From Lachnospiraceae bacterium (GTDB taxonomy: Bacteria; Bacillota; Clostridia; Lachnospirales; Lachnospiraceae): a stretch of 64,000 nt of DNA. Position numbers and translations under genes: made by a program. Position 1 is the first letter of the stretch, and the number at the start of each line of letters is the position of its first letter. The stretch spans positions 7,031-71,030 of the forward strand of contig JAAWBG010000036.1 in assembly GCA_022792535.1 (NCBI GenBank), in the 5' to 3' direction. This document shows positions 8,613 to 64,000 of this stretch, one piece after another. The notes beneath the pieces are model-generated. The model was not told the origin of the DNA, did no database searches, and was given only the letters and a program-made list of their open reading frames with translations.

Positions 8613-8664
8613 ATCACACACACAAATAATACTTTATCACATACAATCATTCTGTAAAGTACTG

Positions 8665-8810: not shown

Positions 8811-8834
8811 CTATTTATTTTTATTTCTGGGTAT

Positions 8835-8863
8835 ATTCTACTCTTCTCTTTCCTATCTGTCAA
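8835..8863 (-). promoter_or_regulatory. Sigma-A promoter of the riboswitch/rib operon
   Basis: TTGACA-17 nt-TAGAAT, about 25 nt upstream of the aptamer. Confidence 0.75.
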
Positions 8864-8885
8864 CAGGCATATTTTGTAAAATGTC

Positions 8886-11027
8886 TTAAAGTTTCATGGT
8901 AAGCTGGATTCGTTTTTTCTGAAGATCCACACTCATGACTTTCACTTCCACTATATCTCCTACGCTGACTGCCTCTAAAGGATGCTTGATATATCGTTCT
9001 GTCATCTGAGAAATATGTACCAATCCGTCTTGATGTACGCCGATATCCACAAAGGCTCCAAAATCAATTACATTTCTCACTGTGCCCTTTAAAACCATTC
9101 CCGGCGTCAGGTCTTTCATCTCTAATACATCGCTGCGCAAAATAGGCTTCGGCATATCTTCTCTGGGATCTCTTGCAGGTTTTTCCAGCTCTTTTACAAT
9201 ATCCTGCAGCGTGATCTCTCCGATTTCCAGCTCTTTTGCCAATTTCTTATAATCCGATATCTTTTTTGAGATTCCTCCTAACTTTCCTTCCCGAATCTCT
9301 TCTGGCTGATAGCCCAGCTTGTCCAATAATTTTAAGGTTGCCTCATAGCTTTCCGGATGCACGCTGGTTCCATCCAGCGGATTCTCCCCATCCATAATCC
9401 GCATAAATCCTGCGCACTGTTCGTAGGCTTTCGGCCCTAATTTGGCCACCTTCAAAAGCTGTGCACGGGTGAGGAATCTTCCATTTGCTTCCCGATAGGC
9501 TACAATATTTTTCGCTATGTTTTTTGTAATGCCTGAAATGTATTCTAACAGAGAAGCCGAAGCTGTATTCAGGTCTACTCCTACTTTATTCACGCAGTCC
9601 TCCACCACGCCGCCTAAGGCGTCGCTTAATTTCTTTTGATTCATATCATGCTGGTACTGTCCCACCCCGATGGATTTGGGATCAATTTTTACCAGCTCTG
9701 CCAGAGGATCCTGGAGTCTTCTTGCAATGGAGGCCGCGCTTCTCTGCCCCACATCAAAATTAGGAAACTCTTCTGTGGCCAGTTTGCTGGCGGAATATAC
9801 AGAAGCTCCGGCCTCATTTACAATCACATACTGCACCGGAACTGAAATCTCTTTCAGCAAATCCACAATGATCATTTCTGATTCTCTGGAAGCTGTTCCA
9901 TTTCCCACAGAGATCAGGGATACGTTGTATTTTTGAATTAGTTTCTTTAACACTGCCTTAGATTCTTCTACTTTATTTTGAGGAGCTGTGGGATAAATCA
10001 CTGTGGTATCCAGCACTTTTCCAGTGGAATCCACCACCGCCAGCTTACATCCTGTACGAAACGCCGGGTCCCAGCCCAATACTACCTTGCCGGCAATGGG
10101 CGGCTGCATCAAAAGCTGCTCCAAATTCTTGCCAAACACACGGATAGCTCCATCCTGGGCACGTTCTGTCAGCTCATTGCGGATCTCCCGTTCAATAGCC
10201 GGGGCAATCAGACGTTTATAGCTGTCTTCCACCACAGATTTTAAGACAGCTGTGGTATGGGGATTTTCTCTGGAAATAGTTTTCTTTTCCAGATACTGGA
10301 GAATCTGTTCTGTGGGCGCTTCCATCTTCACGGTCAGAATCTTCTCCTCTTCTCCACGGTTTAATGCCAGAATCCGATGTCCAGCCAGTTTTGCCAAGAC
10401 TTCCTCAAATTCATAATACATCTCATAGACAGATTCTTTTTCTGGATCTTTGGCTGTTGAGGTGATTTTTCCTGCCCTCATAGTCTGTTCTCTGATGTAT
10501 GTTCGATAATCTGCCTCATCGGAAATACTTTCTGCCAGAATATCCATAGCTCCCGCAATGGCGTCTTCCACAGAATCCACGCCTTTTTCCGAATCCAAAA
10601 ATGTTTCTGCTTCTATCTCCAAAGGCTTCTCTGTCATCTGCAGCAAGATAATATTTGCCAGAGGTTCCAATCCTTTTTCCTTTGCAATGGTGGCTCTGGT
10701 CCTTCGCTTGGGACGATAAGGCCGATAAAGGTCTTCCACCGCTACCAAAGTCTCTGCCGACAAGATCTGCTGTTTCAACTCTTCTGTCAGTTTTCCCTGT
10801 TCCTCAATACTAGACAGCACCTGTTCCTTTTTCTCTTCCAAATTCCGCAGATAGAGCAGACGTTCATGCAGATCCCGCAATACTTCGTCATTCAAAGCTC
10901 CTGTGGCTTCCTTCCGATATCTGGAAATAAAGGGAATCGTATTGCCTTCATCAATCAGTTTTACCGCTGCCTCTGCCTGTTGTTTTCGAATCTTCAGTTC
11001 TTCCGCTAATTTTGCAATAATATCCAT
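8886..11027 (-). CDS. tex: Tex (YhgF) RNA-binding transcriptional accessory protein with S1 domain
   Basis: GNTIPFISRYRKEATG, DPAFRTGCK, IGVGQYQHD, C-terminal S1 GTVRNVIDFGAFVDIGVHQDGLVHIS. Confidence 0.93.
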   Translation of the reverse strand: MDIIAKLAEELKIRKQQAEAAVKLIDEGNTIPFISRYRKEATGALNDEVLRDLHERLLYLRNLEEKKEQVLSSIEEQGKLTEELKQQILSAETLVAVEDLYRPYRPKRRTRATIAKEKGLEPLANIILLQMTEKPLEIEAETFLDSEKGVDSVEDAIAGAMDILAESISDEADYRTYIREQTMRAGKITSTAKDPEKESVYEMYYEFEEVLAKLAGHRILALNRGEEEKILTVKMEAPTEQILQYLEKKTISRENPHTTAVLKSVVEDSYKRLIAPAIEREIRNELTERAQDGAIRVFGKNLEQLLMQPPIAGKVVLGWDPAFRTGCKLAVVDSTGKVLDTTVIYPTAPQNKVEESKAVLKKLIQKYNVSLISVGNGTASRESEMIIVDLLKEISVPVQYVIVNEAGASVYSASKLATEEFPNFDVGQRSAASIARRLQDPLAELVKIDPKSIGVGQYQHDMNQKKLSDALGGVVEDCVNKVGVDLNTASASLLEYISGITKNIAKNIVAYREANGRFLTRAQLLKVAKLGPKAYEQCAGFMRIMDGENPLDGTSVHPESYEATLKLLDKLGYQPEEIREGKLGGISKKISDYKKLAKELEIGEITLQDIVKELEKPARDPREDMPKPILRSDVLEMKDLTPGMVLKGTVRNVIDFGAFVDIGVHQDGLVHISQMTERYIKHPLEAVSVGDIVEVKVMSVDLQKKRIQLTMKL

Positions 11028-49088: not shown

Positions 49089-50168
49089 TCAATATCCAGT
49101 ATTTGCCCGAATCGTTGCGCTTAAGTTTTTCACTGTCTCAGAAGGAGTATAGGCTTCATTTGTATATAGGAACTGGTGGAGCTGAATTACATTGCTCTCC
49201 AAATCAATGGGAATTACCATATCTCCCAAACTTCCCACGTCATGAGATTCCTTATCAAATGGAAATCCTGTATTCTCTCCCATATGGTACTTTGCTACAT
49301 TTCCCGCCAGTCCTAACATCTCTGTCATGCTCAAACTGGTGGAAATCTGAGGCAGCATTTCATCCAAAAGGCTGTTCAATGTAAAAATATCACAGCTTTT
49401 AGCCTTTTCAAACATTTTTGTAATCACCGTTCTCTGGCGTTCCGTACGCTGATAGTCCAGTCCCACGTAACGAATTCTGGCATATGAGGTGGCCTGCACT
49501 CCGTCTACGTGTACATTGGTGCCAGCCGACACTGTGCCGCTGTTGTGTCCAGTCACCTTATTGGTCTCTACTACATATCCGTTCAGCCACTTCGCCTCTT
49601 CCTCTGTAATATCCAGTTCAATTCCGCCTAACAGATCAATGGCATCCACCAACGCATTAAAATCCACACTGACATAATCTGTGATATTCAGATCCAGATT
49701 TTTATTCAGCATCTCCATAGCTTGTTTGGGGCCTCCATTGGCATAAGCTGCATTCGCTTTGCGGAATTTATCATTCTCAATATCCAGATAGGTATCTCGA
49801 TACACGGAAGCCATCTTAATCTCTCCGGTTTTCTTATTAATACTTACCACAATAATCGTATCGCTGTTTCCGCTCTCAAAGTTTCCAGTGGAACGGTTAT
49901 CTAATCCAAACAGCGCAATACTCTCGTATCCTTTCAGTCCTTTTTCTGTATCTTTTGTCAGATCATTGACTTTTACATCCTTATCTTTGATATCAATCCT
50001 TCCCAGTTTCCCGTATTTGCTCCATGCATAGGCAAATACAAGCCCGATCAGCGCCAGCAGAATGGCTGCGATTACCAGGATTACTTTCCGCTTCTGTTTT
50101 TTTCTTCGATTGGTTTTCTTCTTCTTTTTTCTGTGCCCTTCTTCATACCTTTCTCTGTCTCTTGCCAT
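49089..50168 (-). CDS. LCP-family glycopolymer transferase (second copy)
   Basis: Basic N-terminus plus TM, GLDNR, SDTIIV, SVYRDT, DYQRTERQR. Confidence 0.92.
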   Translation of the reverse strand: MARDRERYEEGHRKKKKKTNRRKKQKRKVILVIAAILLALIGLVFAYAWSKYGKLGRIDIKDKDVKVNDLTKDTEKGLKGYESIALFGLDNRSTGNFESGNSDTIIVVSINKKTGEIKMASVYRDTYLDIENDKFRKANAAYANGGPKQAMEMLNKNLDLNITDYVSVDFNALVDAIDLLGGIELDITEEEAKWLNGYVVETNKVTGHNSGTVSAGTNVHVDGVQATSYARIRYVGLDYQRTERQRTVITKMFEKAKSCDIFTLNSLLDEMLPQISTSLSMTEMLGLAGNVAKYHMGENTGFPFDKESHDVGSLGDMVIPIDLESNVIQLHQFLYTNEAYTPSETVKNLSATIRANTGY

Positions 50169-50212: not shown

Positions 50213-51622
50213 CTATACAAATACAACAATTCCCAGAATATTACTCTTCTGTTCTCTTGCCAGATTCAATTCATTGGAGATCTCATCATAGATAGACTGT
50301 CCGATCTGCTCCACAAACAACAGATTTCCGATGGCGGTTCCCTGTTTTAAGGATTCTGCATCATAGAAAATATTTCCACCTTCCTGAATCTGTACTCCCT
50401 GTGCCATCAGTTCCTGCTTCAAGGATTCTAACACATTTTTGTCTGCTTTCTCATATTCACTCCCTGTCAGATAAATATGATCCATTCCCTGTTGTTTGCA
50501 GGAAAGAGCAATATTGGCAGACACCATCTTGATCTGCTGATCCGGCGACAATTTTTTCCTTCTTCTGTCTTTTACCGCCAACAATTTTGCATCAACGCCA
50601 GGCAGGAATCTGCTCTGTTTTGAGGGAACCTCTATCTCTCCCAACAGACGCATACCGTAAAGGCTCCGAATCTCTTCCGAGTTTTGCAGCCTGGCTGTAA
50701 ACAGCATCTTACACACAATCCAGATGCATACCAGAAAAACTCCAAATATAGCTCCCAATACAGCGTATTTCACACTGAACCCAGGCGTTGGAATAAGATT
50801 TTCTTCTTTTTCCTCTGAGTCTTCCTCTTTATCATTTTTCAAAAGATTCAGCTGCGGTTCCGTCATATTTGTTTTCAAATTATTCAATTGATTCTGGAGC
50901 CTGGTTATAGTATCAAAGATTACGCCTTTCCGATCTATCAAATCCTTGTCCACCACAAAATCCTGAGATTCACCTAAAAGGATCAATTGATGCGCTCCAA
51001 TCTGCTGAATCTCAGACTCCTTCTTACTGATCTGCTTTTTCACAGACTCCCCAATAGATTCTAGCTGTTCTTCCTTAGGATAAGCAATTGTTATCACAAG
51101 GGTTGTGTTATCCATATCCACAGATCTTAACTCACTAAAATCCTCTTGGCTGATAGAAAGACCAGCTTCCTTGATGATTTCGCTGCTCATCTCACCGCTG
51201 GCAGCATAATTACTATAAGCATTTATCACATCCCCTGTATAATCGCGAACATTGTCCCTTGTGTAATTGATCACATAATCTGATTTGACATAGTACTGCA
51301 AAGTTAGTCTCGCTTCTCTGTATGGATCAATCTGCATCCAGGCAGACTCTTCCATATAATTCTCATATTCCGCCATCTGCGCTATCAATTCTTTGGCCTC
51401 TGCGACCTGCTCTAACTCTTCCTCTGTCAAAGCTTCTTCTGTCTGTTCCTGGTCCATATTTTGGGCAGCCTGATAAGCTCTGGTATCCCGCACATATTTT
51501 ACGCTTCCCAGCAGAACTGCAAATAAAAGCCCAAAACAAATAATCTGCCGCCATCCCAGCAGAATATTCCAGAATAATTCTAACAGGTTAATTTCCCGTT
51601 CCATTCTCTCCTGTGTCTCCAT
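50213..51622 (-). CDS. Wzz/CpsC-like polysaccharide co-polymerase (chain-length regulator)
   Basis: EINLLELFWNIL..TM, coiled-coil periplasmic region, second TM KYAVLGAIFG; ATG overlaps the upstream TAA. Confidence 0.7.
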   Translation of the reverse strand: METQERMEREINLLELFWNILLGWRQIICFGLLFAVLLGSVKYVRDTRAYQAAQNMDQEQTEEALTEEELEQVAEAKELIAQMAEYENYMEESAWMQIDPYREARLTLQYYVKSDYVINYTRDNVRDYTGDVINAYSNYAASGEMSSEIIKEAGLSISQEDFSELRSVDMDNTTLVITIAYPKEEQLESIGESVKKQISKKESEIQQIGAHQLILLGESQDFVVDKDLIDRKGVIFDTITRLQNQLNNLKTNMTEPQLNLLKNDKEEDSEEKEENLIPTPGFSVKYAVLGAIFGVFLVCIWIVCKMLFTARLQNSEEIRSLYGMRLLGEIEVPSKQSRFLPGVDAKLLAVKDRRRKKLSPDQQIKMVSANIALSCKQQGMDHIYLTGSEYEKADKNVLESLKQELMAQGVQIQEGGNIFYDAESLKQGTAIGNLLFVEQIGQSIYDEISNELNLAREQKSNILGIVVFV

Positions 51623-52764
51623 TAAAATTTCCTCCACACCATTTTATCAACGATTCCCGTATAACTCTGAATGATTTTGACTACTTTCGTACTGACATTT
51701 TCATCCACATAATTGGGAACTTCTGTGCCAAAATCTCCATTCTTCTGCATCTCCACTGCAAGATCTACCGCCTGCAGCACTTGTTCTGTAGTGATACTTC
51801 CTATAATGAAGTTTCCCTTATCAATTGCCTCCGGCCGTTCTGTACTGGTCCGCACGCATACCGCTGGAAAAGCCATTCCCTTACTGTTAAAGTAAGCGCT
51901 TTCCTCTGGCAGAGTTCCACTGTCTGAAACCACGCAAAAAGCATTCAGCTGCAGATGATTGTAATCCGAGAATCCAAAAGGCTGCAGATTTCTCACCAAT
52001 GGATGGAACTGAAACTTTCTGGCTTCAATAAATTTTCTGCTTCTTGGATGAGTGCTGTAGATAATGGGCATCTGATAATTTTCCGCCATATTGTTCACTG
52101 CATTCATCAAGGCCATAAAATTGTCTTCATTGTCAATATTCTCTTCCCGATGGGCAGATAACAGAATATACTTTCCTGCTTCAATTCCCAGTGTCTCTAA
52201 CACTCTGCTGCTCTTAATCTTCTCAAGATTAGCAGTCAAAACCTCAGCCATAGGGGAACCTGTCACATAGGTCCGTTCTCTGGCTGTCCCTTCCTGGTTC
52301 AGATATCTGCGGGCATGTTCAGAATAGCACAGATTAACGTCTGAAATATGATCCACAATCCTTCGATTCGTTTCTTCCGGCAGACGCTCGTCAAAACAGC
52401 GGTTGCCTGCCTCCATATGAAAAATTGGAATGTGCAGACGTTTCGCAGAGATTGCTGACAGACAGGAATTAGTATCTCCTAATATTAATAAGGCATCCGG
52501 CCTTATTTCATTCATCAGTTTAAAACTTTTTGCAATAATATTTCCAATGGTCTCTCCTAAATCTTCTCCCACTGCATCCAGATAATAGTCTGGCTCCCGC
52601 AGGCCCAAATCTTCAAAAAATATCTGGTTCAGGGTATAATCCCAGTTCTGTCCAGTGTGCACAAGAATCTGTTCAAAATATCGATCGCACTTTTTGATAG
52701 CCTCTGATAACCGTATGATCTCCGGACGGGTTCCTATGATCGTCATTAATTTCAGTTTTCTCAT
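51622..52764 (-). CDS. fnlC: UDP-N-acetylglucosamine 2-epimerase family (FnlC/Cap5G type)
   Basis: IGTRPEII, HTGQNWD, LGDTNS, HMEAGNRCFD..PEETNR, HREEN, SDSG. Confidence 0.88.
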   Translation of the reverse strand: MRKLKLMTIIGTRPEIIRLSEAIKKCDRYFEQILVHTGQNWDYTLNQIFFEDLGLREPDYYLDAVGEDLGETIGNIIAKSFKLMNEIRPDALLILGDTNSCLSAISAKRLHIPIFHMEAGNRCFDERLPEETNRRIVDHISDVNLCYSEHARRYLNQEGTARERTYVTGSPMAEVLTANLEKIKSSRVLETLGIEAGKYILLSAHREENIDNEDNFMALMNAVNNMAENYQMPIIYSTHPRSRKFIEARKFQFHPLVRNLQPFGFSDYNHLQLNAFCVVSDSGTLPEESAYFNSKGMAFPAVCVRTSTERPEAIDKGNFIIGSITTEQVLQAVDLAVEMQKNGDFGTEVPNYVDENVSTKVVKIIQSYTGIVDKMVWRKF

Positions 52765-53948
52765 TTCTCGCAAATACCTTTCTCACTGACATCCCTCTCA
52801 TCTACCTTTAAAAAATAGGTGTCTGGCTTCTCAGAACAAAAACATTCATTACACCACATAAAGGTGACAAGATCTGTATCCCCCTCATTGATAATATTGT
52901 GGGTATATCCTGTGGGAATGTCCACAACTTCTATCTTATCTCCGCTTACATGATACTCAATAATCTCATTACTGTCAACCTTTCGAAACTGTATCAAGGC
53001 TTTTCCGCTGACCACCACAAATTTTTCATTCTTTGTATGATGCCAGTGTTCTCCCTTGGTAATGCCAGGTTTTGAGATATTGACGGAAAACTGTCCCCTG
53101 TCCTGAGTCCTTAGAATCTCCGTAAAACTTCCCCTTTCATCTATGTTCATTTTCAGGGGATAAGAAAACTGATCCGTAGGCAGATAGCTTAAATATGCGG
53201 CATACAATTTCTTTACCAGCCCGCCTTCCGTCATATCCGGCACGCTGCGGTCCTCTCTGCTCTTTTTAAAAGAATAGATCAGATCCACAATCTCTCCCAA
53301 AGTGATGGTATGAACCTTTGGCACAAAACAATACCCCTGTTCCTCTTTATGGGCCTTTCCCTGCAGAGCTGCAATCAGTTCCGCCACAAGATCATCAATA
53401 TAAACTAAATGCATGACCACATTCGGATCATTCACCTGGATGGGCAGATCATTTGCAATGTTATGACAGAAGGTAGCAATGGCTGAGTTGTAATTGGGCC
53501 GGCACCATTTCCCAAACACATTAGGATAGCGGTAGACATAAACCTCAGCCCCTGTCTCTTTCCCATACTGAAAGATCAAATCTTCTCCCGCTTTCTTGCT
53601 CTGGCCATATGGGTTGTCCAATGATGCCTGTATGGAAGAAGAGATCATAATGGGACAGTTATTTTTATGCTTTTTTAAGGTCTCCAGCAGTTTAGAGGTA
53701 AAACCAAAATTTCCCTCCATAAATTCCTTCTGTTCTTTGGGACGGTTTACTCCCGCTAAATGAAACACAAAGTCGCAGTCAGTGCAGTATGCATCTAACA
53801 GCGGCTCTGTGGAATCTACATCATATTCATAAATAGTAAGATCTGTTGTCAGCCCGAAAGACTGATCCTTTTTTGTTCGAATATTATTTAATGTTGTAAT
53901 AAGATTGCGTCCTATGAAACCTTTGGCTCCGGTAATTAAAATTTTCAT
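52761..53948 (-). CDS. fnlB: NAD-dependent epimerase/reductase with cupin domain (FnlB/Cap5F type)
   Basis: ITGAKGFIG, HLAGVNRP, YGQSK, NVFGKWCRPNYNS, GEHWHHTKNEKF; start moved to MKILITG. Confidence 0.88.
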   Translation of the reverse strand: MKILITGAKGFIGRNLITTLNNIRTKKDQSFGLTTDLTIYEYDVDSTEPLLDAYCTDCDFVFHLAGVNRPKEQKEFMEGNFGFTSKLLETLKKHKNNCPIMISSSIQASLDNPYGQSKKAGEDLIFQYGKETGAEVYVYRYPNVFGKWCRPNYNSAIATFCHNIANDLPIQVNDPNVVMHLVYIDDLVAELIAALQGKAHKEEQGYCFVPKVHTITLGEIVDLIYSFKKSREDRSVPDMTEGGLVKKLYAAYLSYLPTDQFSYPLKMNIDERGSFTEILRTQDRGQFSVNISKPGITKGEHWHHTKNEKFVVVSGKALIQFRKVDSNEIIEYHVSGDKIEVVDIPTGYTHNIINEGDTDLVTFMWCNECFCSEKPDTYFLKVDERDVSEKGICEK

Positions 53949-54061
53949 GATTCTTTCCTTTCCCTGATCATCCTTTTCTGGCTCCATTATACGCAAGGAA
54001 TCCGTAAGAATCAATAAAATTTTACCCACAGATCATTATCAAATCCTTTTACCTCTCAAAT

Positions 54062-55123
54062 TCACTCCTTCTCTTTATTTTCGGCTTCATTCATATTTAA
54101 GAATTGTTCTAAACAATACATCTGCCATTTCTGGTTTCCGGTGAACTTTTTCATATCAATATCTTCTCTGAATTCCGGTCTGACTGGTCCCCGCCATTCT
54201 TTAAAATATTCGTCAACTGGTCTTGGCATTGGTACTTTATCCGGCACAGAAATCTCTGGATATTTCTTGGCCATCAATTGACGGATTAAATATTTGGGCT
54301 CGCCACTACGAACACGCCGAAGATCCAGTTCTTCTGCCATCTTAAGTCTTGCATAAGGATCATAATATGGCATCTCTGCCACTGCAAAAGCATTTAGATA
54401 AGAGCTGGATGATTCAATGGAAAATACATCGTCCATAAATTTTAAAAAATCAATACCATTCTCATTCATTCTATAACGTTCAAACAAATACCGCATATCT
54501 TCACTCTCTGTTAAAACATCCTCTGGTTTCGTAAACATATAGCGGTCTACAAATTCATCAAACGTCCAGTCCTTTGCCAAAAGACCATCCATACCTCCGA
54601 AAACAAGATCGCTGCTTTCCCCAACAAACATCATTTCTATGCCGTCATTTTTGGCTTGTAACGCCGCCTGTAAAATCTGAGGTTCAATTGAATGTACCGG
54701 CGCACATTTTGCCCTCATAACAGGTTCCAGATAAGAGGTAACTGTTTCCCATGAAATATCTATATAATGGAGACGCAGGTTATAGTACCTGGCATAATAT
54801 TCTGCCCTTGCTAATTCATCTTTCTGAAATTCACCTCCAAGAAAACGAAAGGTGTATGCATCAGCTCCAGCAAGATAGGAAGCTACAATGGCAGAGTCCA
54901 TCCCTCCTGAAAGCATAACTCCTTTTTTCACATCTTTGAACTGATCCATCTGCCTGCGAATTTCATCGTCAATGTCCTCCGCTGTCCTGACATAAACTTT
55001 TTCTTTCTCCGAAACAGGCGTTATATTTCTATGGTGCCCATAATCATAAAAATCTTTACCGTCATCTTCAATATAACGAAATGCCATATAAGAGCTCATA
55101 CAATATTTTTTATCTGCTGCCAT
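54062..55123 (-). CDS. Asparagine-synthase C-terminal-domain-like PP-loop ATPase lacking the glutaminase domain
   Basis: MLSGGMDS PP-loop, YTFRF..DEL..A, GESSDLVFGG; no N-terminal Cys Ntn domain. Confidence 0.75.
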   Translation of the reverse strand: MAADKKYCMSSYMAFRYIEDDGKDFYDYGHHRNITPVSEKEKVYVRTAEDIDDEIRRQMDQFKDVKKGVMLSGGMDSAIVASYLAGADAYTFRFLGGEFQKDELARAEYYARYYNLRLHYIDISWETVTSYLEPVMRAKCAPVHSIEPQILQAALQAKNDGIEMMFVGESSDLVFGGMDGLLAKDWTFDEFVDRYMFTKPEDVLTESEDMRYLFERYRMNENGIDFLKFMDDVFSIESSSSYLNAFAVAEMPYYDPYARLKMAEELDLRRVRSGEPKYLIRQLMAKKYPEISVPDKVPMPRPVDEYFKEWRGPVRPEFREDIDMKKFTGNQKWQMYCLEQFLNMNEAENKEKE

Positions 55124-55165
55124 TGATTTTCGTCCTCCTGATTTATCATCCGATTTCTATCTGTT

Positions 55166-55600
55166 TTATTTTACATCCTGCAAATCATCTTTGCGCACCG
55201 CTTTTAATGCCTCTGTAATCTTTGTAGAAGAAATCCCCTTTGTATATGGAAAATAAACAATTTTTATTCCTTCTTTGGAAAATTCTTCTTCATATTTCTT
55301 CCATTTATCAGTCCCATACCAATCGTCCCCCACAAAAAGATAAGAAGCTCCAAGCTTTTTGCAGGCTGTCAATTTGTCCATATCATACTGAGGTACTGCA
55401 GCATCTATATATCTGCAGCTGCGAATCAGCTCAATACGATCTTCAAAAGGAATCATCGACGTTTTCCCTTTATATTTCACAAGCTCATCCACCGTAACGC
55501 CTACGATCAGTTTATCGCACATTCCCTTGGCATTTTTGAAAAGATTAAGATGTCCCACATGAAATAAATCATAGACTCCCGTTGTGTATCCTATAATCAT
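55166..55600 (-). CDS. TagD-like cytidylyltransferase (HxGH nucleotidyltransferase)
   Basis: YTTGVYDLFHVGHLN, LFVGDDW, YTKGISST. Confidence 0.88.
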   Translation of the reverse strand: MIIGYTTGVYDLFHVGHLNLFKNAKGMCDKLIVGVTVDELVKYKGKTSMIPFEDRIELIRSCRYIDAAVPQYDMDKLTACKKLGASYLFVGDDWYGTDKWKKYEEEFSKEGIKIVYFPYTKGISSTKITEALKAVRKDDLQDVK

Positions 55601-56637
55601 CAGCCCTTCTCCTTCTCGTACAGATAATCTTTCATTTCAACAGAAATTGCATCAAAGGCTCTTCCATGAGCACCATAAAACTTTTTCCAATAACCAATAT
55701 TTTGAGCCGATTTTTCTGGTTCGAAATATTTATGTAGGTGCAGATGGTTTCTTTCATCCAGGGAAATATCGAGAAAATCTGCAATTTCTTTCTTGACCAT
55801 TTCTGTTTTCAGTACGATATCTTCAAATCTAACATACATAATATCTGGATCGGAAGGAAGATTTTTCCTCATTTCCAGCTGCCACTGTGAAAAGCAAAAT
55901 CCATCCTCATACGTTATCCAATCGTCTATATAACGTCCCTGACTGAGCAGATTTGCCAAAATGTCCCGCGGGTCCCTGTCAACTACAATCATCTTTGCCT
56001 TTCTGAAGTAATTATGAATTCTTTTCCCATCACGAGGAGCCAGCGCCAGATCCAAAAGTATAAAGTCTGCTCCCTCTCTTTCTGCTGCATCCGTATATAA
56101 CTCATCAAAGTACTCTTTTGTGGCCTGATAAAATTGTTCCCTGTCAGGTCTCGAAAAATAGTTCTTAGTACTTCTGTTTGCAGTTTTTAATTTTCCTTTC
56201 GAATATATTTCCAGGCCAAACCTGATCCTGTTTATCACATAAGCAGGGTAGCTCATTTTAAATTTGTGATAATAAAAATCTCTGTAATAGTGGCATTCCG
56301 TAAGTTTTTCCAAATAATTTTCTGTAATTTCCATAAATCTAGGATTAATATTTTTCGTATAATTCAATCCGGCCCTTGCAAAGGGGTTTTTCCCTCCGCC
56401 TTTTCTGCCGCAGATCTTGGCTAAATGCAAAAAATCTATCATGGCTCCAGAAGCATTAATCCAATCCCAGTCATCAACCAGCGCCCGCTCCATTGGCTTG
56501 ATCCCATAGGGATCACAGATCAGACGCATCTCTGTATCATTATGATAAAATCCTTTATATTCGCTTAACAAGTCAACCACAGCGCTTGCACCAGACCCAT
56601 GATATCCTCCAATCACAAGATATGTACTATCTGTCAA
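55600..56637 (-). CDS. Sulfotransferase-fold protein
   Basis: N-terminal GYHGSGAS loop, DRDPRD, YVRFED; TTG start with AAGGAGG RBS. Confidence 0.65.
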   Translation of the reverse strand: MTDSTYLVIGGYHGSGASAVVDLLSEYKGFYHNDTEMRLICDPYGIKPMERALVDDWDWINASGAMIDFLHLAKICGRKGGGKNPFARAGLNYTKNINPRFMEITENYLEKLTECHYYRDFYYHKFKMSYPAYVINRIRFGLEIYSKGKLKTANRSTKNYFSRPDREQFYQATKEYFDELYTDAAEREGADFILLDLALAPRDGKRIHNYFRKAKMIVVDRDPRDILANLLSQGRYIDDWITYEDGFCFSQWQLEMRKNLPSDPDIMYVRFEDIVLKTEMVKKEIADFLDISLDERNHLHLHKYFEPEKSAQNIGYWKKFYGAHGRAFDAISVEMKDYLYEKEKG

Positions 56638-56714: not shown

Positions 56715-58139
56715 CTAATTTTCCCTTTGACAGAGCAGCCGGACTTTCAGATATCTCTTATAATAAAAAGCAGATACTGCAAGATACACTGCCATACCAA
56801 TCAATATTTTCCAGATCATCCTTGTAAAGTTTTCAACCTCTGCTCCAAAGGTGATCTGTTTTAAAATCAAAAATAACATAATTCCGAAAATATAAAACGG
56901 AACCAAATATTTCATGATTTTTATTGGTCCTCTCCTTTTTGTTACAAACATGAACTGCACTATAAACACCGTTCCCTCTGCTAAGACTGTGGCAAAGGAA
57001 GCGCCCAGGGCATGATATTCCGAAATAAAAATAAAATTAAATATAAAGTTAACAACAGCTCCTAAGGTAACAGAGAGGACATATATCAGATCCATTTTAT
57101 ATGGTATTAAAATCTGTGTTCTCAGTACGTTTGCCAAAGCAAGAAACAGCGAACTTGGAAAGATAACAGTAATTATGCTTACACAGTTTTCAAATCCAGG
57201 GCCAAAAAACCATGGAACAAATTCTTCTGCAATACCCATCATGCCAAAACACATGGCGGAAGAAAAAAAGGCGGAAAACAACATGATGTATGTGAAATAT
57301 TTATTTTCTGTCTTTACATCACAACTGGAAATTAAATTTGTAATCCGCGGAAGCATTACCGTTCCGATTCCAGAGATAATGCTTGTAGGTACATTTAATA
57401 TTTTTTCACAGTTTTCATAGTATCCAACCTCTGTGTAATCCACCAGCATTCCCAGCATTATTTTATCCATCATTTTATATACGTTGACAGCTATCACCGG
57501 TATAAACAGAACAAAATTTGGCTTCAAATGCTCCATTACATCAGATCTCTCTACTTTTCTGAAAGAAACATACTGAAACAAAAAGACCCATAATACCAAC
57601 TGGCTGCTCAATATACTGATTACCATAATAAGAATATATATATATACATCATCAGGTTCCTTGACAAAGATAAAAATACAAATAAGAGATACTACTTTTA
57701 TCACTGTATTCCGTGTCACAGTAATCCTGAATTTCTCTATTCCAAAAAAGAACCAGTTAATGTCAAATAGGGCTGATACCACATAAATCCCCATCATAAG
57801 GGAGTATACTTTCGTATCTGAAAGAAACATGCAATAGATTGCATAGCCTGAAATCGCAATGGCAGACATCATAAACTGCATCCAAAATATGCTCCAAAAA
57901 GTCTTTGCCAGCTGTTCTCTATCCTCTTTCACTCCGGCAATCGATCTGCTTCCATAATTATTCAATCCTAACATCGCAAAAATAACAAAATAATAGGCAA
58001 TCGAGTAGTGATAAGAATATGTGCCAATCCCTTTTGCTCCGATCACCCTTGATAGAAATGGCGTTGTTATCAAAGGAATGATATAAAGCAAGATCTGATA
58101 TCCAACATTATAGGCTATATTTACTTTTACTTTACTCAT
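56715..58139 (-). CDS. wzx: Polysaccharide flippase
   Basis: NIAYNVGYQIL..PLITTPFLSRVIG, MATE-like multi-TM protein, DKIMLG. Confidence 0.9.
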   Translation of the reverse strand: MSKVKVNIAYNVGYQILLYIIPLITTPFLSRVIGAKGIGTYSYHYSIAYYFVIFAMLGLNNYGSRSIAGVKEDREQLAKTFWSIFWMQFMMSAIAISGYAIYCMFLSDTKVYSLMMGIYVVSALFDINWFFFGIEKFRITVTRNTVIKVVSLICIFIFVKEPDDVYIYILIMVISILSSQLVLWVFLFQYVSFRKVERSDVMEHLKPNFVLFIPVIAVNVYKMMDKIMLGMLVDYTEVGYYENCEKILNVPTSIISGIGTVMLPRITNLISSCDVKTENKYFTYIMLFSAFFSSAMCFGMMGIAEEFVPWFFGPGFENCVSIITVIFPSSLFLALANVLRTQILIPYKMDLIYVLSVTLGAVVNFIFNFIFISEYHALGASFATVLAEGTVFIVQFMFVTKRRGPIKIMKYLVPFYIFGIMLFLILKQITFGAEVENFTRMIWKILIGMAVYLAVSAFYYKRYLKVRLLCQREN

Positions 58140-59404
58140 CTGCTATGCTCCTGTTTTCTCTCTCTCAGGTATATAAAAGATACGATCAAAAAAACAAATA
58201 ATCCATGAGACAACAGTAAGGTACTCAAAATAGATGTGTTCATGTAATAGATATATACAAATACCAATCCATAATAATTGGGTGCAAAATTCAGTTCCTT
58301 CAAGAAAAAAATAATTCCAAGGGGTATCATCAAATATAGAAACGCTCCAAACAGTCCAAAGGAATAATAGCCTTCCACAAATATGCCTGTATTGGCATTA
58401 GTACCAGTCCCCATAACATACTGTCCCACAAATTCCGATACGCTCTGGGTGATAAATCTTGCATCTTTTACCAGTGCAAACCCCGAATGGCTGTAATGAG
58501 TTAAACTTTCTTTGAAGTAATCAATATATACCGCATTAAATCTAGGCGGTATGAGAAATACCCTTCGGTAAATAGATATAAAAAAATCAATACCTGCGAT
58601 CTGATACAGCGATACGCCAAAAATAACCGCCCCCAGCAATCCGTATATCATCCAATTTATTTTTTTCTTATAGCTTCCAGGATAGAAAGCGATCAGGGCA
58701 ATCAGGCCAAAAAAGATTGATTTCAGCCCTCCACATAAAAACAGATAAAGCAGCATCATAACAGACAAGACTGCATGACATTTCTTTCCTTTTCGAAAAT
58801 AATCAATGATTAATATTGGTAAAATCACTCTGGCCAGGGGTTCTTTTATATATCCAATCAAAGAATTTCTTTCTAACTGACGGAATTTGGATCTGGTTTC
58901 ATAGATCTCCTGCAATAGCAGGTTTTTCAGATTTATTTGATCCCAATATTGAAAAAAAGGGATGATGAGCACTATGGCTAATAGAAAGAGAACTTCCGTA
59001 CTATGTCCCGCGTCAAATTTAGCATAAGGAATACTTAATTTTATTTTATCCAGTAATTGAAAGGACGTTAAAAAGACACTTATCAGGATAATCATGGTAA
59101 CTGACACATCCTCGCAGCAGACATAAATACAATTTTCTCCAATGAACAATAAAATCAAACAGACATAGTATGTGATCTTCAGAAATTCGCTGCGCAGGAA
59201 ATCAGCGTAAAAGGAATAAAACAATACCAGAAACGTAGATAAAATCAACCGTTCCATGTTAATACCCGTATAGGGATAATATCCCAGATAACTATAGACA
59301 TGCACACTGTAAAGATAAACAGGTAATAAAAAATAAAATATTATCAGTATCCCGGCTGGTTTCGTAATATTAAATTTATTTACATTTAAAGGTAATCTTT
59401 TCAT
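58136..59404 (-). CDS. Putative polysaccharide polymerase (Wzy-like)
   Basis: Many hydrophobic segments, AT-rich, between GT4 and wzx. Confidence 0.65.
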   Translation of the reverse strand: MKRLPLNVNKFNITKPAGILIIFYFLLPVYLYSVHVYSYLGYYPYTGINMERLILSTFLVLFYSFYADFLRSEFLKITYYVCLILLFIGENCIYVCCEDVSVTMIILISVFLTSFQLLDKIKLSIPYAKFDAGHSTEVLFLLAIVLIIPFFQYWDQINLKNLLLQEIYETRSKFRQLERNSLIGYIKEPLARVILPILIIDYFRKGKKCHAVLSVMMLLYLFLCGGLKSIFFGLIALIAFYPGSYKKKINWMIYGLLGAVIFGVSLYQIAGIDFFISIYRRVFLIPPRFNAVYIDYFKESLTHYSHSGFALVKDARFITQSVSEFVGQYVMGTGTNANTGIFVEGYYSFGLFGAFLYLMIPLGIIFFLKELNFAPNYYGLVFVYIYYMNTSILSTLLLSHGLFVFLIVSFIYLRERKQEHSR

Positions 59405-59448: not shown

Positions 59449-60582
59449 TCAGCCCGAAAAATCTCTTTGCGGAAGAGCAATCTCTTTGTATATTTCATCA
59501 TACTCAGCACAAATATTTTTCCAGTCAAATTTCCATGCGGCCTTTTTGCAGTTGTTACTGATAACATCATAATTTTTCAGTATTTTTTCAATTTTATCTG
59601 CCACATCTGCCGGATTTCCAGAATCAGCGGCATATCCCACATAACCATCTTCAAACTGCCCGTCAAATCCCTGTCCTTTTGTGTAAACCACCGGCAGCCC
59701 CTGTGATATTGCCTCTGCATATACAAGTCCGAATGTTTCTGTGCGGGAGGGCATAACAAAAATATCCTGATCTGCATATATTTTTATCAGGTTTTCTGCA
59801 TCTGTGGGATTCAAATACCTGACAAAGCTGTGCTTCGTTACCGCTTCATAAATATTCTGGTCAATCACTTTTCCTATAAAAGTTAGTTGAACAGAAAAGC
59901 CTTTTTCTATCAGCTTCCTGCATGCCTCGACTGTAACTTTGCAGTTTTTCCGTTTATCAATTATACCAGTACATATAATATTAATAGATTTTGTATCTTT
60001 TATCTTTTTATCCTTATCTGGAATATTCCTGAGCCAAATATCACTAATACCGTTTGGAATCACAACGCTTTTTTCTAAAACCTCAGCCTGAATATTCTTT
60101 TTGACATATTTGCTGACAACCTGGTCACGATAGGAAGCCGAGAGAAAAATAACTCTGTCAGCGCTGCTTAATATTTTATTTCCTATTCCTCTCAGGTAAA
60201 AACGATATTTAAAAAAGGAATTGACATCTGTGTCTCTGACCGCAGTAATATAGGGAATATGACGATCCCGTTTTATCAAATAGCTGATAAAGCCATTGGA
60301 AAACAGACTGTGTGCATGCATAATTTCATAGGGAAATTCTGCATACTTTCTCTTATAATCCTGATAAATTTTAAAATGTTTTATAAAAAAGAAATACCTG
60401 TCAAAATTACTGAAATTATAAGAAATATCTGTATAGTTTCCCCTGTCAAATTCAGCCGGCGTCCTCTTAATGCTGACCGGTACAAAAACCTTTATATGAT
60501 CTCCTTTGGCAATCTGATGGTCATAAATATTTTTATAAAGGTTTCGAGAAACAAAATATGAATTTATATGAAATATGTTCAT
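59449..60582 (-). CDS. GT4 glycosyltransferase
   Basis: HAHSLFSNG, PSRTETFGLVYAEA. Confidence 0.88.
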   Translation of the reverse strand: MNIFHINSYFVSRNLYKNIYDHQIAKGDHIKVFVPVSIKRTPAEFDRGNYTDISYNFSNFDRYFFFIKHFKIYQDYKRKYAEFPYEIMHAHSLFSNGFISYLIKRDRHIPYITAVRDTDVNSFFKYRFYLRGIGNKILSSADRVIFLSASYRDQVVSKYVKKNIQAEVLEKSVVIPNGISDIWLRNIPDKDKKIKDTKSINIICTGIIDKRKNCKVTVEACRKLIEKGFSVQLTFIGKVIDQNIYEAVTKHSFVRYLNPTDAENLIKIYADQDIFVMPSRTETFGLVYAEAISQGLPVVYTKGQGFDGQFEDGYVGYAADSGNPADVADKIEKILKNYDVISNNCKKAAWKFDWKNICAEYDEIYKEIALPQRDFSG

Positions 60583-60623: not shown

Positions 60624-61703
60624 TCATCTGTCAAACTCTCCTGCCATATCTATACTGGAAAAATGACTCAAAGGCAGTTTAACAGGTTGTCCTGTTTTTT
60701 GGCTTTTATAAATTGCTAAAACCAATTCCAAAGCATTACGTCCTTCTACTGCATTGACATAAGGCTGGCGGTCATTTTTAACCGCATCAATTACGTCTGC
60801 AAATAACTTAGTATGTCCATTTCCATACACATTGCTGGTCATTTCCTTTAACCCTTTATATTCGTCGTCATTCTCACCTTGATCGGTAAAATCCCATACA
60901 TCTATATTATTACAGGATGTTCCTCCAAGTTTTACCGTTCCCTTCTCTCCAAAGAGATACAATGTTTCCTCCAGATTTTTCCGGTAAACATTTACCGTTC
61001 CCTCAATGGTTCCTATGGCGCCGTTTTTAAATTTAACAACAGCCATTCCAATATCTTCCGCTTCCAGGTAATGATGAAACTGCCGGCATGTAACTCCATA
61101 AATTTCATCTATTTCAGGCCCCATCATCCATCGGAGCAAATCAATACCGTGAATACATTGATTCATAAGGGTTCCTCCATCGAAAGCCCATTTTCCTCTC
61201 CATGAAGCCTGATCGTAATAATTTTTATTTCTGTTCCATCGAACATGAATGCTTCCATGGGACAGCATTCCAAGTCTGCCCTTTTCCAGGGCAGTACGCG
61301 TCTGCTGAACAGCAATATTAAATCTATTCTGATGGCAGGCGGAAACCTTTACTTGTTTTTCTTTTGATTTTCGAATTATTTCATCAGCATCTTCCATACT
61401 CATGGCAATTGGCTTTTCAATAATAATATTAATTTCTTTTTCAATACAATACAGCGCAATCTCTGCATGTGATCCGCTGTCTGTCGCTATACTGATAAGA
61501 TCAAGTTCATTTTCAAGAATCATCTGCTTATAATCCGTATATCGTTTCAGGGATATCTCTTCTTTTAAATCACACTTTTCTAATAACGTTTCCATTGCTT
61601 TTGGCACAGTATCGCAAACAGCCACTAATTCTAAATCATTGTTTTGAGCCGCTTTTATATGGTTAACAGCAATGCGCCCGCATCCGACCAACGCGTATTT
61701 CAT
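60624..61703 (-). CDS. Gfo/Idh/MocA oxidoreductase (WbpB/WlbA-like nucleotide-sugar 3-dehydrogenase)
   Basis: VGCGRI, EKP, QNRFN, GGTLMNQCIH.IDLL. Confidence 0.82.
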   Translation of the reverse strand: MKYALVGCGRIAVNHIKAAQNNDLELVAVCDTVPKAMETLLEKCDLKEEISLKRYTDYKQMILENELDLISIATDSGSHAEIALYCIEKEINIIIEKPIAMSMEDADEIIRKSKEKQVKVSACHQNRFNIAVQQTRTALEKGRLGMLSHGSIHVRWNRNKNYYDQASWRGKWAFDGGTLMNQCIHGIDLLRWMMGPEIDEIYGVTCRQFHHYLEAEDIGMAVVKFKNGAIGTIEGTVNVYRKNLEETLYLFGEKGTVKLGGTSCNNIDVWDFTDQGENDDEYKGLKEMTSNVYGNGHTKLFADVIDAVKNDRQPYVNAVEGRNALELVLAIYKSQKTGQPVKLPLSHFSSIDMAGEFDR

Positions 61704-61716: not shown

Positions 61717-62895
61717 TCATCTATCTAATTGTATTAAAGTATCAATAATAAATTTTCTTTCCTCATCAAATAACTCCGGAAATATTGGAATTGCAAAAGT
61801 ACATTTACTTAATTCCTCTGTAACTGGAAGATCTCCCTCTTTATAATTCAAATTAGAAAAAGCAAATTGAAGATGAAGCGGTACCGGATAATAGGTTCCG
61901 CAGGAAATACCGGCCTCTTTTAATTTTTCTTGAATCTCAAAAGAATTTTTGTGTCTCAATGCATAAATATAGTAGGAATGGAAACTGTCAGCCGCTTCCA
62001 TGGGAAGATAGTAATGAGTAGATTCTAATGCCCTATGATATAATTCTGCATTTTTTCTCCGTCCCTCTATAAATTCATCCAAGTGAGTAAGTTTTTTCCG
62101 CAGAATAGCTGCCTGAACAGCATCGAGACGAGAATTATACCCGATAAAATAATTATAATATTTGCTTTCTCCCACAGGCATATTTTCTGGAAGCTCTTTT
62201 CCCTTCAATTGATATTCCCGCTTCAATGTCCACAACCCATCTTTTCCTGAACCATGAACTTTAAGGGAACGGCAGGCCTTTGCAATATTTTCATCATCTG
62301 TCAGCACCATTCCCCCGTCCCCATCACAGCCAAGATTTTTCGTCGGAAAAAAAGAAAAACAGGAAATATCTCCAAGTGTATTTTTTCTCCTCCCTTTATA
62401 TTTTGTTCCCACGCTCTGGGCACAATCGGCAATCAAAAAAAGACCATGCTTTCTGCAAATCCTGCGAAGTTCATCCATATCGCAGCTCTGACCATAAAAA
62501 TGCACCGGGAGAATAGCTTTCGTTCTCTCTGTTATCGCCTCTTCCACAAGGGACGGATCCATACAATATGTATCAGGACAAACATCAATAAATACTGGCG
62601 TCGCCCCGACAGCCATGATACTTTCCGCTGTTGCAAAAAAAGTCCAGGATACTGTAATCACCTCGTCGCCTCTCCCAATCCCTAAAGAGCGCAGCGCCAA
62701 AACAATGGCATCTGTTCCATTTCCACAGGAAATCCCAAACTTTGCCCCTTCATATTCCGCAAATTCTTCCTCAAAAGAATCTACCTCTGTTCCTCCTATA
62801 TATCTCCCGCTTCTAAGTACTTTTAAAACAGCTTCCTCATACTCTGCAGCATAAGCTTCATGCTGTCGTTGTACATTCATTAATGGAATATTCAT
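61717..62895 (-). CDS. DegT/DnrJ/EryC1 aminotransferase (WbpE/WlbC-like)
   Basis: NGTDAI, PVHFYGQ, DCAQS, FSFFPTKNLG, YNSRLDAVQAA; start at 62895 chosen by GGAGG spacing. Confidence 0.88.
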   Translation of the reverse strand: MNIPLMNVQRQHEAYAAEYEEAVLKVLRSGRYIGGTEVDSFEEEFAEYEGAKFGISCGNGTDAIVLALRSLGIGRGDEVITVSWTFFATAESIMAVGATPVFIDVCPDTYCMDPSLVEEAITERTKAILPVHFYGQSCDMDELRRICRKHGLFLIADCAQSVGTKYKGRRKNTLGDISCFSFFPTKNLGCDGDGGMVLTDDENIAKACRSLKVHGSGKDGLWTLKREYQLKGKELPENMPVGESKYYNYFIGYNSRLDAVQAAILRKKLTHLDEFIEGRRKNAELYHRALESTHYYLPMEAADSFHSYYIYALRHKNSFEIQEKLKEAGISCGTYYPVPLHLQFAFSNLNYKEGDLPVTEELSKCTFAIPIFPELFDEERKFIIDTLIQLDR

Positions 62896-62912
62896 CTCCA
62901 TGTCCTCCAAAT

Positions 62913-64000
62913 TTATTTCATCCCAATGAGTTTAATCAAACTATACCAACCAATCAATCGTAATGATTTAATCACTGAAAACTTTTCATATTCCCTGTAT
63001 ACTTTCCAGAAATATTTAATCATTTTCCATTTCTGAAAGGAATTTGATGTGGAAATAATTCTGTATTTCATAAATATTTCATGCATGCCATAAATCTTAG
63101 TCCCGTCTCGGAGCACTTGCAGCCATAAGGCATAATCATTATTTTTACGTATTACAGGAATATCAATTTTCCGCAATTGTTCTGCTGTAATAACTACTGT
63201 TGAAGAGCCGATTGGACAAGATTTCAAAATTGTCTTATAATCTGCGGCAGTTTTACATTTTATAATTTTATGCAGGTCTGCTCCGTTTTCATCTATCCAG
63301 CAATAGTCAGAACAAATAAACTCGTAATTGTGATTAATCATAAATTTAATCTGACGTTCCAGTTTATCCTCCGTCCATAAATCATCTGCATCTATAAAGG
63401 CAATAAGACTGCCGGAAGATTTCTTAAAGCCCATTTTGGTAGCTGCTCCAGGTCCGCCGTTTTTTGGCATCTGGAATACCTTTATTCTTTTATCCTTTTC
63501 TGCCAATGATTCGGCCAGTCTTTTTGTCCCATCTTTGGAACAATCATCTACAAGAATAAGTTCCCAATCGCTATAAGTCTGTGCCTGAACTGACGCTATC
63601 GTTTCTTTTAGCGTGTTGACTGCATTGTACATTGGTACAATAATAGAAACTTTCGGATTATTTTTTACTTGCTCTTTTACCTTCACTGTCTCACACCAAC
63701 CATTATTATTTTTCTTTGTTGATCTATTGCAGATTTCTCTTGCTTTTTTTAACTTTTGGTTATATTCATCTTGAGTAATTTTACCTGTTCTTAACAAATA
63801 GTCTCCTAAATCCTCAGCTGTAGCCATATCCCCCTGAGTAATGCCTTCCTGCTTGATAAAGGCTGTTTTTATCGTATAAAAAATAATTTTTACATCACTG
63901 ATAAATCCCACATTTTTAATGTACTCTTGGTCCCATTTCAATTTATCTTCCCAGGAAATAGCATTGCGCCCTTTAATCTGAGCAAGCCCGGACAAACCAG
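62913..64000 (-). CDS. Sugar phosphotransferase C-terminus fused in frame to a GT2 glycosyltransferase (5' end beyond the window)
   Basis: (P)GLSGLAQIKGRNAISWEDK..D..Y..DVKII transferase tail, then without a stop KVSIIVPMYN..LVDDCSKD..FIDADDLW. Confidence 0.8.
   Translation of the reverse strand, partial: GLSGLAQIKGRNAISWEDKLKWDQEYIKNVGFISDVKIIFYTIKTAFIKQEGITQGDMATAEDLGDYLLRTGKITQDEYNQKLKKAREICNRSTKKNNNGWCETVKVKEQVKNNPKVSIIVPMYNAVNTLKETIASVQAQTYSDWELILVDDCSKDGTKRLAESLAEKDKRIKVFQMPKNGGPGAATKMGFKKSSGSLIAFIDADDLWTEDKLERQIKFMINHNYEFICSDYCWIDENGADLHKIIKCKTAADYKTILKSCPIGSSTVVITAEQLRKIDIPVIRKNNDYALWLQVLRDGTKIYGMHEIFMKYRIISTSNSFQKWKMIKYFWKVYREYEKFSVIKSLRLIGWYSLIKLIGMK

Follow-up and report, generated by a model that had tools for sequence, protein, structure and literature searches.

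The stretch of Lachnospiraceae DNA analysed here (64,000 nucleotides of contig JAAWBG010000036.1, assembly GCA_022792535.1; hereafter the window) contains, directly downstream of a gene for a Wzx-type flippase (56715-58139, minus strand; Polysacc_synt, 3.8e-31), three genes whose possible common product is the subject of this work. All three lie on the minus strand. The first (55600-56637, TTG start) encodes a sulfotransferase-fold protein of 345 amino acids (aa), which we call STL; its assignment draws on weak Sulfotransfer_3 and Sulfotransfer_1 matches, an AlphaFold2 model, motifs and gene context. The second (55166-55600) encodes a TagD/ECT-like cytidylyltransferase of a distinct subfamily (144 aa; CTP_transf_like, PF01467, 1.7e-22), and the third (54062-55123) a glutaminase-less AsnB-like PP-loop enzyme (353 aa; Asn_synthase, 8.6e-19, residues 49-190). 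An initial annotation of the window described three adjacent co-oriented genes after wzx, the first two overlapping at 55600. This arrangement is confirmed, the TGA stop of STL sharing one base with the ATG of the cytidylyltransferase gene.

In the Pfam scan, the matches of STL to Sulfotransfer_3 (1.5e-07) and Sulfotransfer_1 are weak and confined to its C-terminal half. Neither PF04991 nor PF04464 is matched, so that by sequence STL is not a LicD or TagF protein. NCBIfam returned no match; the STL family as a whole has no NCBIfam model and reaches Pfam families at threshold level only. Sequence search against chains of the Protein Data Bank (PDB) gave nothing meaningful, and a family profile reached the SULTs, over the C-terminal half only. 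An AlphaFold2 model built from an alignment of 28 STL sequences confidently predicts a sulfotransferase alpha/beta fold (predicted local distance difference test, 92.5; predicted template modelling score, 0.89). When this model was compared with the PDB by Foldseek, the top 30 matches were all sulfotransferases (E 2e-5, probability 1.0, template modelling score (TM) 0.35-0.57, 10-12% identity), the best being the tyrosylprotein sulfotransferases TPST1/2, the sulfotransferase domains of CurM and OLS, Stf9 and Stf1. The family is large: clustering at 50% identity gives no fewer than 1,117 clusters (E <= 1e-30). Relatives are named "sulfotransferase" in their source records.

The motifs listed in the initial annotation are all present in STL: RDPRD at residues 221-225, RFED at 270-273, and the 5´ loop GYHGSGAS at 11-18, which lacks the usual Lys/Arg. 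The family form of this loop is G-[YF]-x-x-[ST]-G-S-[SG]-A. Among 189 family members, the position of the Lys/Arg of the 5´-phosphosulfate-binding loop (5´-PSB; position 14) holds W in 49, G in 44, A in 18, Y in 18 and S in 17; it is Gly in the window. The RDPRD region aligns to the 3´-phosphate motif of SULT2A1, and in the family profile Arg221 of STL corresponds to Arg121 of that enzyme. The serine of the R-x7-S motif, expected at position 229, is replaced by Asn in the window, and the 189 members hold D (70), E (25), L (23), N (22) or S (19) there. Invariant throughout are G16, E36, G45, R221-D-P-R-D225 and E272. Judged from this alignment, the STL family has lost both the basic residue of the 5´-phosphosulfate loop and the serine of the 3´-phosphate motif.

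Sulfotransferases of this fold use 3´-phosphoadenosine-5´-phosphosulfate (PAPS), and genes for its synthesis were searched for beyond the window. Adenosine-5´-phosphosulfate (APS) kinase (PF01583) and ATP sulfurylase (PF01747) were not found in the genome to which the window belongs (3.19 Mb, 92.7% complete); control genomes were positive. The genome does hold two PAPS_reduct-family matches. What had been noted for the window, that neither gene is visible, therefore extends to the genome at this completeness. Nine other STL genomes were checked for APS kinase: three clearly have it, and in six it is absent or marginal, among them the isolate genome of an Aliidiomarina that carries phosphoramidate genes together with an STL relative, where none was found. 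Near STL genes themselves, an APS-kinase-like gene occurs at one of about 93 loci. Given the lost 5´-PSB Lys/Arg and R-x7-S serine and the PAPS genes not found, a plain PAPS sulfotransferase is unlikely, which agrees with the non-PAPS substituent suggested in the initial annotation.

The second gene of the trio resembles TagD at a distance. On the TagD model TIGR01518 its product reaches 85.2 bits against a cut-off of 165.4, and three of its counterparts elsewhere (loci L005, L008 and L060) likewise stay below it at 84-90 bits. Its closest PDB matches are ethanolamine-phosphate and glycerol-3-phosphate cytidylyltransferases. The motif HVGH (residues 14-17) is present, as are K44 and K46, and the C-terminal motif, RTEGISTT in TagD, has the form YTKGISST. 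The genome contains no other TagD-like gene, its remaining PF01467 genes being coaD and nadD. A metagenome-assembled genome (MAG) of Synergistaceae carries a cytidylyltransferase 88% identical to that of the window (L005, 8096-8542). As the neighbouring STL and AsnB-like proteins there reach no more than 30% and 38% identity, the donor gene seems either to be mobile across phyla by mosaic exchange or to be under very strong constraint.

The third protein consists of the synthetase domain of AsnB only. It has no N-terminal Ntn glutaminase domain; on the AsnB model TIGR01536, which has 517 positions, its alignment starts only at about residue 210 and its score is 48 bits against a cut-off of 267. 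Its SGGMDS (72-77) and GESSDLVFGG (167-176) align to residues 234-239 (SGGLDS) and 347-356 (GEGSD) of E. coli AsnB. We found 3577 homologues, many 76-81% identical and mainly metagenomic; three contexts picked from among them each have a CTP_transf_like gene of about 147-171 aa directly upstream. In a class-level search the gene was present in 5 of 399 genomes, and we therefore consider it, and the cassette it forms with the cytidylyltransferase gene, a sporadic accessory trait.

That cassette was examined at 80 metagenome loci, annotated with reference proteins and then with Pfam for unassigned neighbours. Wherever the contig leaves room, a cytidylyltransferase gene abuts the AsnB-like gene, in either order. 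At L161 and L164 one open reading frame (ORF) carries both domains, its C-terminal part being 55-61% identical to the window cytidylyltransferase. LicD and TagF are the families known to move substituted phosphates off CDP-linked donors, and a gene of one or the other kind lies beside the cassette at 58 of the 62 loci with room to judge (LicD at 35, TagF-like at 23). The remaining four have a LicD or TagF gene within a few kb or none. Because the cassette adjoins known CDP-donor transferases, the cytidylyltransferase and AsnB-like genes are best read as a widespread donor cassette that makes a CDP-linked donor, with an exchangeable transferase. Tandem AsnB-like paralogues occur at some loci. 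A second, divergent paralogue together with a DUF362 protein lies downstream of the cassette at L005 (9599-10810) and L146 (6746-9020), and tandem or fused paralogues are seen at L116, L120, L134 and L136; they suggest that the head group undergoes a second ATP-dependent reaction.

In the window, the place of the exchangeable transferase is taken by STL. The initial annotation had remarked that the TagD-like enzyme has no TagF or LicD partner in the window, and allowed for one just outside it. No LicD or TagF-like gene was found on the whole 71.9-kb contig, and no LicD in the assembled genome; what stands as a real caveat is a set of four TagF-like genes on another contig, C110, which have no cytidylyltransferase of their own. 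The initial annotation had further made its proposal depend on the trio recurring elsewhere, which it does. The three closest STL homologues (L188, L189 and L190; 55-71% identity) are followed by a cytidylyltransferase and an AsnB-like gene in the same order, in differing surroundings; at L190 the third gene, without a Pfam assignment, is cut by the contig end. The Synergistaceae MAG repeats this order, again after wzx, and at L010 a 348-aa protein upstream of the cassette, with no precomputed Pfam match, is a distant STL relative. A Bacteriovoracaceae MAG (L060) has another order, a full-length AsnB preceding a window-type cytidylyltransferase and then STL. At none of these seven loci, the window included, is a LicD or TagF-like gene nearby, and STL holds the LicD/TagF position at all of them. 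According to a tree built from 88 STL sequences, STL and the cassette must have become associated at least four times. A hypergeometric estimate made by hand, with LicD/TagF at none of four STL lineages against 58 of 62 cassette loci, gives about 1e-4, the loci being not fully independent. By its gene position, though not by family membership, STL may thus be likened in function to LicD and TagF.

Further evidence comes from what STL relatives adjoin when the cassette is not there. Species-representative genomes were scanned with an alignment of 14 STL sequences, which yielded 253 relatives; 80 loci, drawn from many phyla, were examined, and with earlier contexts the set comprises 88. Firstly, phosphonate genes (phosphoenolpyruvate mutase and phosphonopyruvate decarboxylase, an aminotransferase of the 2-aminoethylphosphonate (AEP) type, a PntC-like nucleotidyltransferase) lie within 8 kb of STL at 14 of the 88 loci; L007 and L029 are two of these, and the other 12 come from the 80 genome loci. 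Secondly, phosphoramidate genes similar to Cj1418, Cj1417 and Cj1416 are found beside STL in Aliarcobacter (L004), Aliidiomarina (L024) and Labilithrix (L061). Thirdly, in Xenorhabdus szentirmaii (L056) and X. koppenhoeferi (L079) three genes stand in a row at 7513-10144: a true TagD (176.6 bits on TIGR01518 in L056), an STL relative, and a fusion of a cytidylyltransferase with a thiamine/choline-kinase-like domain. A TagF-like gene is located 2 kb upstream of them. A Pfam-checked fusion of a cytidylyltransferase with a Gfo/Idh/MocA oxidoreductase accompanies a class-V aminotransferase and an STL relative at L043 (10163-11467). Fusions at L059 (1338-2690) and L085 (10158-11483), likened to it by length and by their CTP_transf_like part, stand beside an aminotransferase and an STL relative as well. 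This combination would suit the synthesis of a CDP-linked amino-alcohol, for example a head group of the serinol-phosphate type. In a proteobacterial and campylobacterotal clade, an NTP_transferase gene is immediately downstream of STL. In an STL clade sister to that of the window, a conserved set of three genes, for a class-V aminotransferase, a DUF2284 protein and an NTP_transferase, directly follows STL (L002, L003 and L011) and may be another head-group pathway.

Among 127 immediate STL neighbours there are nine CTP_transf_like, seven NTP_transf_3 and five NTP_transferase genes, the remainder being mainly glycosyltransferases and flippases. Amino-uronic sugar genes (UDP-sugar dehydrogenase, Gfo, DegT) are also frequent near STL. 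What the partner genes have in common is a cytidine-linked phosphoryl or phosphonyl donor, and this association is strong but not exclusive.

The trio sits inside a long minus-strand operon for a cell-wall polysaccharide. Upstream of the flippase gene follow a 422-aa protein without any Pfam or NCBIfam match (58136-59404), whose gene position suggests a candidate Wzy-type polymerase, and then four genes assigned by Pfam and NCBIfam scans: a family 4 glycosyltransferase (59449-60582), a Gfo/Idh/MocA oxidoreductase (60624-61703), a DegT aminotransferase (61717-62910) and a TuaG-like family 2 glycosyltransferase (GT2; 62913-63995). A gene of 422 aa without Pfam match, likened to the candidate polymerase by length and position only, is at the equivalent place in L188, and a DegT and Gfo pair like that of the window adjoins STL in L188 and L190. 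Downstream of the trio are a WbcJ/FnlB-like reductase (52761-54029), a WecB-like 2-epimerase of the FnlC/WecB type (51622-52773), a Wzz-like protein (50213-51637) and a LytR-CpsA-Psr (LCP) ligase (49089-50168), all on the minus strand. There is no surplus of terminator-like sites in the 49-64 kb stretch. The contig stops 869 nucleotides past the end of the window, so the start of the cluster is out of view. The TuaG-like ORF begins with 46 residues that match the C terminus of Bac_transf, and its frame is open to the window end, meaning either a phosphotransferase-GT2 fusion or two overlapping genes. No 4,6-dehydratase of the FnlA type is among the scanned cluster genes (41.8-64 kb), despite the FnlB/WbcJ-like and FnlC/WecB-like genes at 51622-54029, and the L-sugar pathway appears incomplete on the contig.

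We propose that the three genes act together in the cytoplasm to tailor a cell-wall polysaccharide of the Wzx/Wzy type that is attached by LCP. The cytidylyltransferase would join CTP with a small phospho-acid or phospho-alcohol to give CDP-X. The AsnB-like enzyme would adenylate a carboxylate of X and amidate it with free ammonia, for it has no glutaminase domain, whereas L060 holds a full-length AsnB at the equivalent place. Amidation might precede or follow cytidylylation. Because a window-type cytidylyltransferase lies beside STL without AsnB at L046, there is a hint that cytidylylation can come first. STL would then accommodate the CDP-linked donor in the site that sulfotransferases use for PAPS. 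In the lipid-linked repeat unit, a sugar hydroxyl would attack the distal phosphorus in-line on the cytoplasmic face, and STL would release CMP. Such a transfer would be isosteric with sulfuryl transfer from PAPS, which releases 3´-phosphoadenosine-5´-phosphate (PAP).

From gene context and sequence, we put at roughly 55% the probability that STL moves a phospho-head group from a CDP-linked donor onto the polymer and that the cassette makes this donor. The initial annotation had suggested that the trio builds and transfers a non-PAPS, nucleotide-activated substituent, and comparative evidence, that is co-occurrence, motif losses and the PAPS genes not found, supports it. As for the head group, glyceramide phosphate (from CDP-glyceramide, made from 2- or 3-phosphoglycerate) is our candidate, a guess that we regard as doubtful even within the model. 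It is based on the abundance of phosphoglycerate, the TagD-like nature of the cytidylyltransferase and three precedents: CDP-glycerate is known as a metabolite (PMC13228409), a bacterial O-antigen carries D-glyceramide 2-phosphate as a substituent (PMC6222762), and CDP-threonine is an unusual CDP-head group that has a TagF-like transferase (10.64898/2026.02.12.704994). A wider formulation, which we hold tentatively and rate a little below even odds, is that the STL family may be an unrecognised class of phospho- and phosphono-head-group transferases on the sulfotransferase fold, using donors without a 3´-phosphate (CDP-X, CMP-AEP, CDP-amidate), and that the cassette may make a new amide-bearing CDP donor such as CDP-glyceramide that decorates cell-wall glycans of many gut Firmicutes.

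Several observations weigh against the proposed role of STL. The invariant Arg221 of the 3´-phosphate motif is still present. About half of the STL loci have no head-group gene within 8 kb, by the reference set used, and TagF-like or LicD genes also occur at several of them (about 13); in L024 it is a strong TagF-like gene, not STL, that abuts the Cj1416-like gene. At L046, as said, the AsnB-like gene is missing from the association. Further, the cytidylyltransferase may make plain CDP-glycerol, given its HxGH motif and Lys44 and Lys46, which presumably correspond to residues of B. subtilis TagD. Its product, CDP-glycerol or another, may finally feed the TagF-like enzymes of C110, instead of STL or as well.

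This last possibility leads to the first alternative, in which the donor cassette is real and STL is not its transferase. The C110 TagF-like enzymes or another protein would use the donor, and STL might, for example, modify or edit the head group, bind a nucleotide without catalysis, or serve another acceptor. The four TagF-like genes (400-1071 aa) belong to a teichoic-acid-like cluster on C110 (about 52.9-65.2 kb; L095 and L096), where they are accompanied by TagGH-like ABC transporter genes and by genes for a DUF6020 protein and a beta-helix protein; a rhamnose/Wzt-type polysaccharide cluster adjoins it. Besides the cytidylyltransferase of the window, no TagD or TarI for these TagF-like genes was found in the assembled genome, although the missing 7% or so could hide a TagD. 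An IspD-like gene on C145, considered as a TarI-type supplier, lies beside tsaD and was set aside as housekeeping. The co-occurrence of TagF-like or LicD genes with STL at about 13 loci favours this alternative too, as do the TagF-like gene directly after the Cj1416-like gene in L024 and a TagF-like gene that abuts the cassette in L180, with an STL relative 5 kb away. We nevertheless find it unlikely. All seven STL-plus-cassette loci lack a nearby TagF or LicD, whereas at 58 of the 62 cassette loci without STL such a gene is the direct neighbour; the STL and cytidylyltransferase genes overlap by one base; and the TagF type that neighbours the cassette elsewhere (L008) has no tblastn match in the genome of the window. 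Where a locus carries two head-group pathways, two candidate transferases tend to be present as well (L059, L180), in keeping with a separate transferase for each head group.

According to the second alternative, the three genes do not form one pathway: the cytidylyltransferase would be the TagD of the cell and make CDP-glycerol, the AsnB-like enzyme would amidate a uronic acid of the glycan, and STL would add glycerol phosphate or have an unrelated function. The kept HxGH and presumably Lys44 and Lys46, the presence of TagD among the best PDB matches, and the status of the gene as the sole TagD-like one in a genome with four TagF-like genes all agree with this, and so do the amino-uronic sugar genes common near STL and the true TagD that abuts STL in Xenorhabdus. 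We consider it less likely still, because the AsnB-like and cytidylyltransferase genes are adjacent wherever both are visible on a contig and even occur as fusion ORFs, every cassette cytidylyltransferase tested scores 84-90 bits on TIGR01518 against the cut-off of 165, and no uronic-acid dehydrogenase gene was seen in the window part of the cluster. The least likely reading, that STL is an ordinary PAPS-dependent polysaccharide sulfotransferase lying next to a cytidylyltransferase gene by coincidence, has in its favour the fold, best structural matches that are all PAPS enzymes, the names of the relatives, RDPRD and FED motifs of the kind usual in bacterial sulfotransferases, and the alignment of Arg221 to the 3´-phosphate Arg of SULT2A1, but it is made very improbable by the loss of the 5´-PSB Lys/Arg and the R-x7-S serine, by APS kinase and ATP sulfurylase not being found in the 92.7%-complete genome (nor in Aliidiomarina, with none or marginal matches in five other STL genomes), by the near absence of APS-kinase genes around STL, and by the repeated independent association of STL with genes of cytidylyl activation.

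How bacterial surfaces are recognised by the immune system, how phages adsorb to them and what charge they carry is influenced by head groups linked through phosphodiesters, among them phosphocholine, glycerol phosphate, aminoethylphosphonate, phosphoramidate and phosphothreonine. If STL is indeed a head-group transferase, it would be a third, structurally unrelated family beside LicD and TagF. It would explain how head groups are attached in some phosphonate and phosphoramidate clusters that have neither of the two, and it would show re-use of the PAPS site of sulfotransferases for cytidine nucleotides. The cassette, with its roughly 3,600 homologues and its abundance in gut metagenomes, would then point to an uncharacterised and probably amide-bearing surface substituent in common gut Firmicutes. 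A search of the literature accessible to us returned nothing relevant on sulfotransferase-fold transferases for phosphonate, phosphoramidate or other cytidine-linked groups, on the cytidylyltransferase/AsnB-like cassette, or on LicD with AsnB and a cytidylyltransferase. A paper on nucleotidyl activation in phosphonate biosynthesis reports LicD-like phosphotransferases and glycosyltransferases in the gene neighbourhoods and never uses the word sulfotransferase.

Among known systems, the analogy with Campylobacter drawn in the initial annotation deserves attention first. In the O-methyl phosphoramidate (MeOPN) pathway of C. jejuni (Cj1415-Cj1418 with transferases of the Cj1421/Cj1422 type), as in our proposal, the phosphoryl group to be transferred is borne by a cytidine nucleotide. 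A cluster in a Campylobacterales genome (G488; L209, 5288-13716) contains a Cj1415-like kinase, a DUF2972 protein, a 416-aa Sulfotransfer_3 protein, a double methyltransferase and homologues of Cj1418, Cj1417 and Cj1416; the sulfotransferase-like and DUF2972 pair is probably of the MeOPN transferase type. This Sulfotransfer_3 protein keeps SRTGS and R-x7-S, and the Cj1415-like APS kinase, a 3´-kinase, is in the same cluster. STL, by contrast, has neither motif, and such a kinase is almost never nearby. We infer that where a 3´-kinase makes a PAPS-like cytidine donor the canonical motifs are kept, and that STL, rarely accompanied by such a kinase, lost them and would use ordinary CDP- or CMP-linked donors. 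Homology of STL with the Campylobacter MeOPN transferases was considered and rejected: ten Campylobacterales genomes with Cj1418 gave no STL match, and the L209 protein is only marginally similar (hhalign E 0.003). In the genome of the window, tblastn with the L004 and L209 homologues found no Cj1418 and no Cj1415-like kinase, and only weak partial matches to Cj1417 and Cj1416; the window itself has no Cj1415-1418 homologues. The analogy thus holds as a precedent at the level of fold, and fails as pathway homology.

With the PAPS sulfotransferases (TPST, the CurM domain, Stf0/1/9, SULT2A1) STL shares the fold, the Arg of the RDPRD type and the C-terminal FED region; it differs in its low similarity (10-12% identity, TM 0.35-0.57), in having neither the 5´-loop Lys/Arg nor the R-x7-S serine, and in the PAPS supply not found in its genome. 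CpgD of Caulobacter, a CTP:phosphoglycerate cytidylyltransferase, is a precedent for a CMP-activated phospho-acid as head-group donor, but its fold resembles that of choline-phosphate rather than glycerol-3-phosphate cytidylyltransferases, and it serves sphingolipid synthesis without amidation (PMC13228409). FtaABCD of Clostridioides difficile, which works with CDP-threonine as well as CDP-N-methylthreonine, is similar to the trio as a small operon that places an unusual non-alditol head group on a sugar through a phosphodiester; its donor enzymes are different and include no AsnB-like enzyme, its transferase FtaD is TagF-like, and the acceptor is O-GlcNAc on flagellin (10.64898/2026.02.12.704994). 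A parallel in layout is offered by LicC/LicD and TagD/TagF, for phosphocholine and for glycerol or ribitol phosphate, in which the CDP donor comes from a small cytidylyltransferase and the phospho-head group is put on the glycan by a transferase encoded next to it. In the window, the neighbouring protein is of the sulfotransferase fold, the cytidylyltransferase falls below the TagD cut-off, and the AsnB-like enzyme is an obligate partner. Modules that tailor glycans with head groups are already known; the fold of the transferase and the chemistry of the donor would be new.

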